A DNA stretch of 64,000 nucleotides from an uncultured Mycoplasma sp. (GTDB taxonomy: Bacteria > Bacillota_I > Bacilli_A > RF39 > UBA660). A program made the translations under genes and the position numbers. Numbering within the stretch: the first letter of the stretch is position 1; every line of letters begins with the position of its first letter. Under the pieces are notes generated by a model. The model was not told the origin of the DNA, did not search any database, and saw only the letters and a program-made list of their open reading frames with translations. The stretch is from the NCBI GenBank assembly GCA_964616405.1, contig CAZTRE010000004.1, positions 1 through 64,000 on the forward strand. Reading direction: 5' to 3'. Shown piece after piece: positions 22,097-47,827 of the stretch.

Positions 22097-22127
22097 TGAA
22101 AAAAAAGAATCTAGGTTATAGATTCTT
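22097..22127 (-). terminator. strong intrinsic terminator closing the Tad/T4SS cluster
   Basis: The minus-strand RNA reads AAGAAUCUA-uaacc-UAGAUUCUU followed by a U-run. The 5' arm overlaps the stop codon at 22126-22128. Confidence 0.75.
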
Positions 22128-23373
22128 ATTTAACTAAGTATGGATCTTCTTCAGTACCGGTACCACTCTTGTACATAACTTCTGAGTTTAAATAAACTAC
22201 TGGTCTAACTCTAGCATACATCATAGCTTTTTTATCAATAAGACCATTGCCAGCATCAACCATATATGCATCTGATGAAGTAGAAGCAACAGCGGTAGCT
22301 GTCCACCAACTATAATTTGATATTAAGTAATTGTAATTTTGACATGATGGGCTTGATGGGTTAGTACAATTTTGGTCAATACTAGCATTCATAAAATCAG
22401 CCACTGTTAGTAAACTAATTTGTTGGTTTCTCATGACTTCTTTACATTCAACAGCTTGTTCTGCTCCAGATTGAGTAAGTCCACGTTTAGCAACACACGT
22501 ATTATGAGAAACAATTCTACCCTTATCTTTATCACTTAGTAAATTCTTAGTAATAGTTTCATCTTTTGTACTATATAGTTCTGATAATTTTTCCCTAATT
22601 CTACTTGAAGAATAATTATTTATACCAGCACTATAATTAGTATCTTGATTAAATCTATCGTCCCATGGAACTAAAATATTTAATGGCTCTGCCATAACAA
22701 GAACTAAATTATTAGAGGAATTTATTTTTACAATTCTCCATAGAGCACTATCTAATTGAACATAATTATTAACTTGTTCTCCACGGAAAACATAATTTCC
22801 ATCTTTATTGTATAACCCATAACCAGAACTTACAATTTTATTATCATCTCTAACTACTTTATATAAAGCTTTAGAGGAATATGATTCACCACAATCTAAT
22901 TTTGGAATATAGATATAGTTTGAACCAGCCTTTTGAACTCTTACAGATCCAGTACATAATGAATTAGTATACTTTGAAAGATCTTTCATTTTTCCTTCGG
23001 CAACTAAAACTGAGACATCTACTGTTTGAGAATTTCCATCATTTTTAGGAAGACTCTCTTTGTGATCTGCAAAGTAAGATTCAGCTGCATTTGCCATAAT
23101 CGTTTCTATTTCTTCATAAGTTTTTTTACCACCAAAAAGTGAAGTAATAAAGACTATTAACAATATACCTATAATAATGACTATGATTACGGTAAACATT
23201 ATTTTTATTAATTTAGCTTTGTCTTTTTCCCTATTTGAACCACTACTTTTATTACTACCAGAATCACTTGAAAAAGAATTATCTGTATCATATTCTTCTT
23301 CAAGATCATTCATTTCTTCAGTAATGATTTCTTTTCCTGTATTTTTATCTACATTAAAATTCATCTTATCCAT
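22126..23373 (-). CDS. membrane-anchored surface protein, paralogous in two modules to 44459-46261
   Basis: N-terminal Ser/Asp-rich region, then one TM helix (IMFTVIIVIIIGILLIVFITSLF). The membrane-proximal module has the pattern E..A..Y......LP...V....L....C...V.V...Y.Y...L.CG. The C-terminus ARVRPVVYLNSEVMYKSGTGTEEDPYLV matches YGVRPVLTIKGSSLLKGGAGTAENPYTF in the 600-aa protein. Confidence 0.6.
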   Translation of the reverse strand: MDKMNFNVDKNTGKEIITEEMNDLEEEYDTDNSFSSDSGSNKSSGSNREKDKAKLIKIMFTVIIVIIIGILLIVFITSLFGGKKTYEEIETIMANAAESYFADHKESLPKNDGNSQTVDVSVLVAEGKMKDLSKYTNSLCTGSVRVQKAGSNYIYIPKLDCGESYSSKALYKVVRDDNKIVSSGYGLYNKDGNYVFRGEQVNNYVQLDSALWRIVKINSSNNLVLVMAEPLNILVPWDDRFNQDTNYSAGINNYSSSRIREKLSELYSTKDETITKNLLSDKDKGRIVSHNTCVAKRGLTQSGAEQAVECKEVMRNQQISLLTVADFMNASIDQNCTNPSSPSCQNYNYLISNYSWWTATAVASTSSDAYMVDAGNGLIDKKAMMYARVRPVVYLNSEVMYKSGTGTEEDPYLVK

Positions 23374-23390
23374 ATGTATATCTCCTTTTA

Positions 23391-46261: not shown

Positions 46262-46270
46262 AGGCTCTCC

Positions 46271-47827
46271 TTATTTAATCTTATACGAATATCTTTTATT
46301 TCTAATTGTATATATTAATTTTATAGATTTAGCATCTACCATTTTTTCAGGAACTAGTGTATATAAGTACTTTCCATAGTATACTCGATTGAACGGATTT
46401 TTGAACTCAACTATACTTTCTTTATCTTCATTATTTATATAATTAATTTTACCATATTTGATTGAAAAGTCAATCATATCTTTGCCCTCAAAATTGTTTG
46501 AAGCAAAGGATACTTTCAAGATTTTATATCCTTTTTTGGCAGTATATTTTTCTGTTTGTGAAGTACATGTTGAACTATTACAAACACGATAGGTATAATC
46601 AACCTCATCTAAAAACTGATACTCATCAAATATTACTTGTTCTTGTTTCTTTTTTAGTGTAAAGTCAAATTGTTCTCCTAAGGATAAATCTTTTTGATCT
46701 TGTATTTTTGAGACATCTTTTAAATTTAATTTAATTTTTCTTAAGTGAGGCTCTCCTTTATTATTAAACTCTTGGTAATATAAAACAAATCTTTTTGATG
46801 ATAGTTTTTTATCCACTCTAAAAACCATTATTAGATTGAATTGTTCATTACTTTTTAATTCTTTCTTTTCATAGGTTGTTCCATAATCAGCAAATTCAGA
46901 ACCATAAGTCTTAGCCGTGGTCACATAATTATTAATACCATTCATAACATGAAATTTATTTAAATCTATTTCACGCATTGAAGAATTGTTTTTTATTGTT
47001 AAATCAAGTATAACAAATGAATTTAAATCAGAAATTGTATTACCAGTATAATCTTTATCAGTATAATAGCTATTATTTAAAGTAATTGTATAAGCATTAG
47101 CATTTAGGCTTTGCCCTTCTTTATAAGATTTATTAGTTACAAAGATAAATTTATAACTACTATATATAAATAAAATAAGTATAACTGTAAATATAGAATT
47201 AACTAATAGTTTATGTTCTTGATAAAAATAATTTAAATTTCGTTTTAGTCTCTTTACTCCTCGTTTTAAACTATTTTTATCAAATTCAACATTGATCTCT
47301 AGTTCTTCTCGATCTTCTTGACTCATTTCTAAATACTCTTGATCCATTTGAAAGTTAAACTTATTTAAGTCAACACCAAAAATACGGATTAAAAAGATAA
47401 GCATGGTTGGGTATTGAAAGAAGGTACCAATGACCATAAAGTCGCGAATGGCACGAATGGATGCCGTCTCTAAGTTACCTGTATAATCGTTAAAAAAGCC
47501 TCTAGCCGCTATGAATGTTGCAAAAACAAGGATATATTCTGCAATTGGTAATAAATATAATTTCCATGGTTTTTTCTTATGGCGTAATAATATTAAAAGC
47601 AATAAGCTACCTACGATAATTAAAATCATTGTTAATAAGGCAAATGCAGAAACATATTTGCTGATTGGTTCGGTATAGGCATCATATGTTTGTAGTTCCA
47701 TGAATTCAGCAATAAATGAAGTTAGTTCCATATTCTTATAGTATATATAACCGCAAAGTATTAATAATAAAATATGAATTTTTCTAAAGTGCCTAATTAA
47801 AAAGGCGTATGGTTTTCTAATGATCAT
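46271..47827 (-). CDS. polytopic membrane protein with an exported beta-rich (DUF4352-like) C-terminal domain; first gene of the cluster
   Basis: 518 aa with 4-5 N-terminal TM helices, a charged linker, another TM helix, and an exported domain with the pattern FVILDLTIKNNSSMREIDLNKFHV...FNLIMVFRV. Confidence 0.45.
   Translation of the reverse strand: MIIRKPYAFLIRHFRKIHILLLILCGYIYYKNMELTSFIAEFMELQTYDAYTEPISKYVSAFALLTMILIIVGSLLLLILLRHKKKPWKLYLLPIAEYILVFATFIAARGFFNDYTGNLETASIRAIRDFMVIGTFFQYPTMLIFLIRIFGVDLNKFNFQMDQEYLEMSQEDREELEINVEFDKNSLKRGVKRLKRNLNYFYQEHKLLVNSIFTVILILFIYSSYKFIFVTNKSYKEGQSLNANAYTITLNNSYYTDKDYTGNTISDLNSFVILDLTIKNNSSMREIDLNKFHVMNGINNYVTTAKTYGSEFADYGTTYEKKELKSNEQFNLIMVFRVDKKLSSKRFVLYYQEFNNKGEPHLRKIKLNLKDVSKIQDQKDLSLGEQFDFTLKKKQEQVIFDEYQFLDEVDYTYRVCNSSTCTSQTEKYTAKKGYKILKVSFASNNFEGKDMIDFSIKYGKINYINNEDKESIVEFKNPFNRVYYGKYLYTLVPEKMVDAKSIKLIYTIRNKRYSYKIK

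Follow-up and report, generated by a model that had tools for sequence, protein, structure and literature searches.

Description of the locus

The subject is a gene cluster of 25.7 kb on the minus strand (22126–47827) of a 64-kb stretch of DNA from an uncultured Mycoplasma sp. (GTDB lineage Bacteria; Bacillota_I; Bacilli_A; RF39; UBA660). The stretch comprises positions 1–64,000 of contig CAZTRE010000004.1 (assembly GCA_964616405.1, forward strand) and is called the window below. The cluster consists of 22 co-directional open reading frames (ORFs), from orf1 (46271–47827) down to orf22 (22126–23373). It carries the components of a type IV secretion system (T4SS) of the Gram-positive VirB4/VirD4 type, together with genes that resemble the motor of a Tad-type filament. 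Neighbouring ORFs overlap by up to 32 nt or are separated by up to 90 nt (largest gaps 90, 78 and 55 nt). All features given below lie on the minus strand unless they belong to the flanks.

Bounded on both sides by terminator-like hairpins of the minus strand. The upstream boundary is that of greA (47872–47907), with an AT-rich 8-bp stem, AGATAATC-acga-GATTATCT, and T10. The downstream one follows orf22 (22097–22127), likewise with an AT-rich 8-bp stem, AGAATCTA-taacc-TAGATTCT, and T8. Both are overlooked by a consensus terminator scan, because each has fewer than three G–C pairs and the scan demands three. Housekeeping genes are present on the greA side (greA, HD phosphohydrolase, U32 peptidases) and on the orf22 side (rhodanese, VTT/DedA protein, RmuC, TrpRS, trigger factor, Lon). 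The G + C content is 26–33% throughout the window; that of the cluster equals that of the flanks, without a compositional break. No tRNA genes are found in the window. A preliminary description of this DNA, made from the letters and a list of ORFs, had given 22 minus-strand ORFs, a terminator at each boundary and a chromosomal position. Every ORF is recovered exactly in the ORF listing, both hairpins with their T-runs are present, and the housekeeping genes on both flanks agree with a chromosomal cluster.

Filament-type components

Domains were scanned with Pfam over essentially all coding-strand ORFs of the window of at least 90 aa. Orf7 (38012–39412) is a secretion ATPase of the T2SSE superfamily, CpaF/TadA–VirB11 group (Pfam T2SSE 100 bits, cut-off 24.9). 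Walker A, Walker B and His box are intact. The C-terminal tail is of low complexity. In the PDB sequence search it scores highest with CpaF (75 bits) and FlaI (72 bits), and VirB11 reaches 53 bits. Orf6 (39455–40249) is CpaB/RcpC-like, with an RcpC domain (Pfam 30.2 bits, cut-off 28.8) and a SAF domain (21.2 bits, cut-off 21). It scores 90% in hhalign against two annotated CpaB proteins and 46 bits against TIGR03177, under the cut-off of 71. Orf5 (40279–40761) is a DUF5411 protein (Pfam 163 bits) with an N-terminal hydrophobic helix, and a candidate minor fibre subunit. Homologs of orf5 stand invariably just upstream of CpaB-like and ATPase genes, in distant lineages as well. Comparison of orf5 with gene 36 of the Bacillus subtilis plasmid pLS20 gives 40% in hhalign.

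Orf8 (37097–37999) is a homolog of pLS20 gene 38 and probably a divergent platform protein of the T2SSF type (TadB/TadC-like), where it is placed by profile–profile evidence only. Orf9 (36288–37097) is a second platform-like membrane protein, a paralog of orf8 and a homolog of pLS20 gene 39. Alignments from RF39 only are too shallow (effective number of sequences 1.6; orf8 vs orf9 7%). The orf8-family profile includes distant homologs at 20–35% identity from a representative search and plasmid homologs. The T2SSF reference consists of six annotated proteobacterial TadB/TadC proteins and two proteins of the Sulfobacillus plasmid pL15, one of them annotated as T2SSF by NCBI. In hhalign the orf8 family matches this reference at a probability of 95% (E = 3.7e-8), and the 215 aligned columns extend across the T2SSF domain. 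Controls against the reference (reversed sequences, unrelated families) give 0.9% or less. Query-side controls with unrelated families give 12.7% or less, the highest being a 23-column match between the orf9 family and orf13, and for the orf8 family 3.6% or less. Between the orf8 and orf9 families the match is 91%. A Pfam scan of 22 members of the two families, distant homologs included, yields no T2SSF match. By these profile comparisons orf8 and orf9, with pLS20 genes 38 and 39, appear to be a divergent T2SSF-like family that is missed by current Pfam and NCBIfam models.

Orf10 (36039–36209) is a 56-aa protein with one hydrophobic helix and its own promoter, and a candidate Flp-like major fibre subunit. 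The N-terminus, MK(A/D)ATGELNLTVITLIAIAAVIGFFW, is conserved across the relatives shown. In distant lineages the corresponding position is taken by proteins of about 50 aa whose short acidic leader ends in G and runs into a hydrophobic helix. These leaders (FFEEYG/LVLVV, LQEYGG/FVLSI, KDYTG/ELVLV) resemble the DE.G leader of Flp, as seen in two Flp sequences. Orf11 (35556–36011) is a candidate minor pilin of 151 aa with a conserved N-terminal MRDAFGG followed by a hydrophobic helix; a protein of about 110–135 aa occupies its position in other lineages. Orf12 (34476–35549) is TadZ-like by architecture. It has a flavodoxin/receiver-like N-domain and a ParA/MinD-type (SIMIBI) C-domain in the AlphaFold2 (AF2) model (mean confidence, pLDDT, 80). 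In Foldseek the C-domain matches ParA 3cwq, BcsQ, MipZ and HypB, and IcmF spans both domains. Walker A is degenerate, the lysine being absent in the family consensus. Sequence-profile comparison with TadZ gives no match (hhalign 0.8%).

Type IV secretion components

Orf21 (23391–25697) is a VirD4 coupling protein (Pfam T4SS-DNA_transf 199.8 bits, TraG-D_C 91.4 bits, TrwB_AAD_bind 87.5 bits), matching VirD4 of pLS20 at 4e-56. Its C-terminus (23391–23430), DDD(D/E)FFDDFFDN, is invariant in almost all complete orthologs among 40 inspected, while the approximately 200 residues ahead of it are hypervariable. VirD4 of pLS20 and of pZB18, a pMG1-like plasmid of Enterococcus faecium, is without the DDFFDDFFDN tail of RF39. 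Its sequence suggests a short linear motif by which the tail may dock a substrate or adaptor. F TraD offers a parallel: its tail, acidic and ending in Phe, binds TraM similarly.

VirB4 is encoded by two ORFs. Orf17 (30612–31166) is the N-terminal part (NF045975 VirB4_plasma, model positions 98–276), and orf18 (28825–30615) is the C-terminal ATPase part (NF045975 345 bits, model positions 298–893). Orf18 also matches the CD1110 family (173 bits) and AAA_10 (50 bits, cut-off 27.5); the NF045975 and CD1110 scores are under the equivalog cut-offs. The split, into about 184 and 596 aa, is present in all relatives examined. Profile comparison of orf17 with the N-terminal VirB4 pieces of plasmids is negative.

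Orf15 (31513–33465) is a VirB6-like polytopic channel protein with weak matches to NCBIfam MMCAP2_0566 and Mbov_0396, which are transmembrane families of Mycoplasma integrative and conjugative elements (ICEs). Its profile matches a protein of the pLS20_p028 family at 3.3e-7. Orf16 (31147–31461) is a small VirB3/PrgI-like membrane protein. It matches a DUF5592 protein of pZB18 at 2.7e-5 in profile comparison and stands directly before VirB4, as in pLS20 and pZB18. Orf13 (34091–34420) is a VirB2-like T4SS pilin with a two-helix hairpin, and orf14 (33494–34000), its paralog (hhalign 99.6%), is a second one with a signal peptide and an N-terminal extension. The Pfam T4SS_pilin score of orf14 is 21.8 bits (E = 2e-4), missing the cut-off of 26.6; 14 of 24 members of the orf13/orf14 family match this model (PF18895). 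Profile comparison of orf13 and orf14 with the VirB2-like proteins of plasmids is negative. Orf19 (26535–28796) is a membrane-anchored wall hydrolase (Pfam SpoIID 46 bits, above cut-off; TIGR02669 54 bits). Peptidase-like motifs are present in its C-terminal Cys/His domain, as read by eye only. Orf20 (25749–26531), anchored by its N-terminus, holds the VirB8 position and is conserved in 62 of 80 metagenome loci. No family match to orf20 is found in Pfam or NCBIfam, and hhalign against the VirB8-position proteins of pLS20 and pZB18 gives 3%.

Of the assignments made in the preliminary description, those to the T4SS are retained: VirD4, VirB4 as two ORFs, the VirB6-like and VirB3-like proteins, the SpoIID hydrolase and the two VirB2-like hairpin proteins, which are paralogs with PF18895 matches in their family. 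The T2SSE placement of the ATPase, for which CpaF and FlaI score above VirB11 in the PDB search, and the CpaB-like protein, with RcpC above cut-off and hhalign 90%, stand as well. The Tad platform had been tied to an HMM (hidden Markov model) placement of the products of 37097–37999 and 36288–37097 in T2SSF. No HMM match is obtained; profile–profile comparison supports the placement for orf8, and orf9 is linked to orf8 as its paralog. A TadZ-like orf12 is borne out by the two-domain fold in AF2 and Foldseek, not by sequence, and the Walker A lysine is absent. The names Flp-like (orf10) and TadE-like (orf11) find no profile support and come down to the N-terminal motif only.

Surface proteins and sortase

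Orf1 (46271–47827) is a polytopic membrane protein with N-terminal transmembrane helices and a large extracytoplasmic domain; in 68 of 80 loci it is conserved next to greA, at the head of the cluster (median identity 48%). No Pfam or NCBIfam match. Orf2 (44459–46261) is a membrane-anchored surface protein with an Ig-like domain (Pfam Bact_surface_Ig-like 73 bits; median identity 48%). Orf22 (22126–23373) is a membrane-anchored surface protein with a weak DUF6273 match, conserved as the last gene before rhodanese. Orf2 and orf22 are paralogs by weak BLASTP similarity at both ends, and the pair brackets the cluster. Orf3 (43606–44454) is a divergent class-B-like sortase (Pfam Sortase 30.1 bits, cut-off 26.6) with a visible LVTC catalytic motif; TIGR03064 srtB gives 46.8 bits, far under the cut-off of 153.75. 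No C-terminal LPxTG- or NPxTN-like sorting signal is present in any protein of the cluster. Orf4 (40779–43637) is a Cys-rich secreted protein of 952 aa, a candidate adhesin and the fastest-evolving member (median identity 34%; mean pairwise distance 0.66, vs 0.14 for greA). It has no Pfam or NCBIfam family match. Its position is that of the adhesin genes (Tie, SpaA-like) in pLS20 and pZB18.

Internal promoters

Conserved signals in relatives sit in the three largest intergenic gaps. Before orf13 (gap 34421–34475) there is a sigma-70-like promoter, TTGACA-17-TATTAT (34471–34443), which matches at 10 or more of the 12 positions in 66 of 75 relatives and at all 12 in 20. An extended –10 promoter precedes orf10 (gap 36210–36287; motif 36281–36254), at 10 of 12 or better in 54 of 75 relatives. 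After orf13 (gap 34001–34090) an AT-rich terminator-like hairpin with T11 (about 34071–34040), conserved in relatives, is followed by a further promoter before orf14. The promoter score upstream of orf5, orf8 and orf15 is only 7–9 (of 12), vs 10 or more before orf13. The cluster, spoken of earlier as one apparent operon, is a co-directional block; from the conserved promoters and hairpin in its three largest gaps it is read here as a block with internal promoters ahead of the pilin-like genes, and not as one simple operon. The arrangement suggests that orf10 and orf13 may both be made in excess, because dedicated promoters and a trailing attenuator are the expectation for abundant filament subunits.

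Distribution and inheritance

Synteny was examined around the ATPase in 80 genome loci and around VirD4 in 80 metagenome loci. Close homologs of the ATPase run into thousands. A relative is encoded in at least 568 GTDB species representatives, the best 80 being 67–88% identical. Relatives include 'Mycoplasma sp. CAG:877' and Candidatus Faecimonas (GTDB genus CAG-877, order RF39; about 1.4 Mb, 28% GC). The order orf1–orf18 is found in 69–80 of the 80 ATPase-centred loci and, with greA ahead of it, is invariant wherever the contig extends that far. The order orf12–orf22, then rhodanese, VTT and RmuC, is equally conserved in the longer of the VirD4-centred loci. Median identity is 84% for the C-terminal part of VirB4, 77% for orf8, 76% for the ATPase, 75% for orf10, 74% for orf9 and 73% for VirD4, vs 86% for greA and 82% for RmuC in the flanks. 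For orf1–orf4, orf15, orf19, orf20 and orf22 it is 34–48%. The conserved components are 62–97% identical across hundreds of species, without patchy near-identity. The C-terminal part of VirB4 is conserved to the same degree as greA. Pairwise distances of eight cluster proteins track those of greA (r = 0.43–0.56; 0 of 500 permutations reach the observed value).

Relaxase and integrase domains are absent from the window ORFs scanned by Pfam. A tblastn search for MobL/MobP2 is negative both for the window and for 2.6 Mb of related loci. No flanking direct (att-like) repeats are found beyond chance. These data indicate a single old acquisition followed by vertical descent, with purifying selection on the motor parts and rapid change in the exposed parts.

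Other genes of the window

The sole recombinase or mobile-element gene of the window is an IS3-family transposase in two consecutive frames (60267–60629, helix-turn-helix part; 60677–61486, rve part), 12 kb off and unrelated to the cluster. Tandem paralogous membrane proteins (48491–49177 and 49262–50008) lie between greA and the HD phosphohydrolase gene. They are without a Pfam family and 24–38% identical in relatives. U32-family peptidase genes number three (7529–9703, 51249–52433, 52426–53286). Sporulation-type genes are represented by Spore_YunB and an adjoining sigma-70-family factor (3745–4455, 4724–5503), besides the SpoIID domain in orf19 (26535–28796).

Comparison with known systems

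The best plasmid matches of the ATPase are in pLS20 and pZB18 (33–35% identity; pLS20 gene 37, 35%), followed by pXO2, pAW63 and pXO1-like Bacillus plasmids, and then by true CpaF, VirB11 and TrbB. Counted as relatives of pLS20 are pXO2 of B. anthracis with the pAW63 group, and pMG1, pHTbeta and pZB18 of Enterococcus. Profile matches to pLS20 or pZB18 are obtained for orf7 (1e-53), orf15 (3e-7), orf16 (3e-5), orf18 (1e-36) and orf21 (4e-56). The orf8-family profile matches pLS20 gene 38 (2e-21) and its homologs in pXO2 (2e-18) and pZB18 (2e-11); orf9 matches pLS20 gene 39 at 2e-4 to 6e-4 in HMM searches. The conjugation operons of pLS20, pXO2 and pZB18 begin with an adhesin gene, a protein of about 120 aa (DUF5411-like), the ATPase and two membrane proteins of about 250–280 aa. 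Proteins of about 120 and about 50 aa, a VirB2-like protein, VirD4, a VirB6 protein of the p028 family and a VirB3-like protein follow. The plasmid operons end with a small gene (one in pLS20, two in pZB18) and a large VirB4-like gene, a wall hydrolase and a MobL/MobP2 relaxase; the pair of small and large VirB4-like genes resembles the split VirB4 of RF39. VirD4 precedes VirB6 in the plasmids and ends the cluster region in RF39, which is the sole difference of order in the shared backbone. Besides the relaxase, the plasmids have genes for replication, partition, quorum-sensing control and surface exclusion. MobL relaxase, Rco/Rap/Phr control, Ses exclusion and replication genes are not detected at the RF39 locus, the regulators without a dedicated search. 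RcpC/CpaB-like, sortase and orf12-like genes are, in turn, not detected in the plasmid stretches examined.

In the pLS20 family, gene 37 is described as 'putative VirB11', genes 38–41 as of unknown function, and no pilus components as encoded (PMC8557374). A review of the Bacillus cereus group mentions only VirB11, and the pAW63 homolog is likewise named VirB11. No paper was found in the literature that describes a Tad-like platform pair in pLS20-type plasmids, nor one that links RF39 to a T4SS or Tad system.

A module of seven genes (DUF5411, RcpC, T2SSE, gene 38-like, gene 39-like, about 50 aa, about 110–135 aa) recurs as a unit in several low-GC lineages. Tad-like modules lie on contigs L169 (9209–12774), L172 (7599–12507), L175 (5706–9582), L176 (2482–6613) and L177 (4342–13110). 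The module of L169 adjoins ribosomal-protein genes, is without an ATPase gene between the RcpC and platform genes, and is followed by an orf12-like gene (39% identity). That of L177 is followed by T4SS_pilin, TrbL_4, VirB3-like and possible VirB4-like genes, in a setting like that of a mobile genetic element, with SSB and ArdC-like genes. In pL15 (13737–16754), a conjugative plasmid of Sulfobacillus thermotolerans with MobL, NCBI annotation assigns the product following the homologous ATPase to T2SSF. This protein matches the T2SSF profile at 1e-6. It would be a bridge between true TadB/C and the unannotated family of pLS20 genes 38 and 39. The preliminary description had regarded the Tad pilus and the T4SS as independent systems fused at this locus; the conjugation operons of pLS20, pXO2 and pZB18 contain this composite too, as does contig L177. 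By its gene content the composite is best taken as an old and widespread monoderm T4SS design, not as a peculiarity of this genome.

Similar to Tad/Flp pili (Aggregatibacter, Caulobacter, Bifidobacterium) in that two paralogous, platform-like proteins, each of about 300 aa, come after a CpaF-like ATPase. The resemblance extends to a CpaB/RcpC protein, a ParA-type protein of two domains, a small subunit (about 50 aa; acidic segment, G, hydrophobic helix) and a larger minor subunit. Distinguished from them by platforms too divergent for T2SSF HMMs, a subunit without G/xxxxEY, no TadV/CpaA seen in the window, and embedding in a T4SS.

Similar to Mollicute ICEs (M. agalactiae, M. bovis; MPF_FATA), whose families score best in NCBIfam, both with VirB4 (Mbov_0397, 345 bits) and with the VirB6-like protein. 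Distinguished by VirB4, which is single in the Mycoplasma model and split in RF39, and by scores under the equivalog cut-offs. The mycoplasma elements are mobile, with a DDE recombinase, and support chromosomal transfer. They are not known to carry a canonical relaxase, a T2SSE ATPase or a platform module.

Similar to the T4SS of Patescibacteria (e.g., Southlakia epibionticum), which is of monoderm type, lineage-wide, chromosomal, mostly relaxase-less, found in small genomes and equipped with VirB2-like T4SS_pilin genes. That system has been proposed to be co-opted for non-conjugative host interaction, and in one species it is indispensable for epibiotic growth (PMC12102498, PMC12857230). It belongs to another phylum; a Tad-like module in the locus is not described, and type IV pili are treated as a separate machine (PMC12102498, PMC12857230). 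Among known systems it is the nearest conceptual precedent of the RF39 version. The thin type IVb pilus of IncI plasmid R64 and the type IV pilus of PAPI-1, with VirB4/VirD4, are cases in which a type IV filament machine and T4SS ATPases cooperate in DNA transfer, aiding liquid mating (PMC12857230). They differ in being Gram-negative, of PilB/PilC type (type IVb), encoded in a separate gene cluster and not homologous in detail.

Interpretation and alternatives

The cluster is probably a chromosomally fixed, vertically inherited relative of the T4SSs of pLS20, pXO2 and pMG1 type, of a design that natively contains a Tad-like filament motor; it may serve the host cell in contact-dependent exchange. 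The structural identity and the vertical inheritance, taken together, are highly probable. Several observations weigh against this interpretation. NCBIfam does not separate the classes for orf7 (VirB11 110.9 bits, TadA-type 110.2 bits, both under cut-off). Orf8 and orf9 are unmatched by T2SSF in Pfam, NCBIfam and PDB profiles, the AF2 model of orf8 (pLDDT 77) has no Foldseek match in the PDB at E <1, and orf9 reaches only 36% against T2SSF in hhalign. The T2SSF reference is a small alignment of 8 sequences, compared without secondary-structure scoring. Orf10 gives 0.4% against Flp in hhalign; its junction is ATG/ELNLT, without EY and without the G/xxxxEY motif. Orf11 has no profile similarity to TadE, and a prepilin peptidase (Peptidase_A24, TadV/CpaA) is absent among the window ORFs scanned. 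The distances of the ATPase correlate weakly with those of greA (r = 0.17; 9 of 500 permutations). The relaxase search covered 64 kb here and ±10 kb in relatives, and a relaxase elsewhere in the genome is possible. The function in the RF39 lineage is inferred only, and neither the substrate (DNA or protein) nor the direction can be read from the sequence.

That the cluster is an ordinary ICE or integrated plasmid, built for its own horizontal transfer and with relaxase and integrase outside the window, had been left open by the preliminary description. The closest characterised relatives are indeed plasmid conjugation operons, VirD4 is intact with a conserved docking-like tail, and the view is limited to 64 kb of the genome. 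This explanation is nevertheless very improbable: one insertion site (greA on one side, rhodanese/VTT/RmuC on the other) is occupied in all informative loci, divergence tracks greA, the components are 62–97% identical across hundreds of species at the GC of the flanks, and no integrase or relaxase (Pfam, window), MobL/MobP2 (2.6 Mb) or att-like repeats are found. An ordinary ICE was accordingly rejected on synteny, greA-distance correlation, relaxase searches and the repeat check. A machine for DNA uptake (competence), in which the T4SS runs inward, as in ComB of Helicobacter or archaeal Ced, and a Tad-like fibre captures DNA, has a small but real share of the probability. It would suit a relaxase-less, chromosomal, lineage-wide system and could supply nucleotides to reduced genomes; CedD is among the weak VirB4 family matches (42 bits), and Tad- and Com-type filaments are established organelles of DNA uptake. 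ComB, however, operates without a coupling protein, whereas VirD4 is strongly conserved here with its partner-docking-like tail; no cluster protein resembles ComEA, ComEC or DprA in Pfam and NCBIfam scans, and the direction of transport is not legible in the sequence.

Very nearly as improbable as uptake, and marginally more so, is the absence of any Tad-like machine, with orf7 a VirB11, orf8 and orf9 class-specific inner-membrane subunits, and orf10 and orf11 small T4SS accessory proteins. The literature names the pLS20/pAW63 homolog VirB11, the top NCBIfam score is VirB11 at 110.9 bits, and T2SSF, Flp and TadE HMM matches, a peptidase in the window and a Foldseek match for orf8 are all lacking. 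Opposed to this are the match of the orf8 family with TadB/TadC (95%, 215 columns, clean controls), a protein with the RcpC/CpaB domain, which is a hallmark of Tad and not a part of T4SSs, the TadZ-like fold of orf12, the CpaF and FlaI scores above VirB11, and the T2SSF-annotated protein after a homologous ATPase in pL15. Slightly less probable again are two uncoupled neighbours, a Tad-type adhesion pilus (orf5–orf12) and a separate T4SS (orf13–orf21). Internal promoters do separate the pilin genes, and on contigs L172–L176 the seven-gene module is without VirB4 in the sequence at hand; these contigs are short, however, and end within a few kb. The two sets stand side by side, with unchanged order, in RF39, pLS20, pXO2, pZB18 and L177 despite identities of only 25–35%, and in the plasmids the conjugation operon encloses the module, with the adhesin gene on one side of it and virD4 on the other. 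The coupled, vertically inherited relative of the plasmid T4SSs remains the favoured interpretation.

Proposed function and significance

In the proposed mechanism a hexamer of orf7 on a platform of orf8 and orf9 would polymerise orf10 into a short thin fibre, in which orf11 and orf5 would be minor components. Orf6 (CpaB-like) and orf12 (ParA-like) may help to build or position the machine. Orf19 would open the wall, and the fibre would cross the opening. The fibre would present variable adhesins, and the fast-evolving orf1–orf4 and orf22 would mediate contact with the partner surface. VirB4 and VirD4 would energise the transfer of macromolecules through orf15 (VirB6-like) and orf16, and the T4SS conduit or pilus would be made of orf13 and orf14. 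Tentatively, and with somewhat less than an even chance of being right, the machine may serve the host cell, and not a mobile element, in contact-dependent exchange of DNA or protein with neighbouring cells. Service to the host cell is proposed because no relaxase is found nearby and purifying selection is strong in genomes of about 1.4 Mb. The joint statement that the T4SSs of pLS20, pXO2 and pMG1 hold an unrecognised Tad-type filament machine and that RF39 has domesticated the hybrid as a core relaxase-free organelle is more doubtful still, and rather unlikely as a whole.

Apparently new are the recognition of a Tad-like motor in the pLS20-type class of T4SS and, in RF39, a chromosomal version that is order-wide and relaxase-free. 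According to reviews and primary papers (including PMC8557374), Gram-positive conjugation systems lack a pilus. The machine claimed here consists of an ATPase, two T2SSF-like platforms, a subunit of about 50 aa and often CpaB- and TadZ-like proteins. If the claim is true, it would be the 'missing' contact-making pilus of monoderm conjugation and could explain the efficient liquid mating of pLS20-class plasmids. For donor–recipient contact in Gram-positives, a Tad-like motor in the pLS20, pXO2 and pMG1 operons is a hypothesis testable in a tractable plasmid.

RF39 is a widespread, uncultured, genome-reduced gut order that devotes about 1.8% of a 1.4-Mb genome to this machine, at one conserved locus. 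Conservation of VirB4 at the level of greA, together with fast-evolving surface proteins, points to a contact-dependent lifestyle or to regular exchange of chromosomal DNA. If this is so, RF39 would depend on physical contact with other cells, whether for DNA exchange or for parasitic or epibiotic acquisition, and the machine may help to explain the resistance of RF39 to cultivation.

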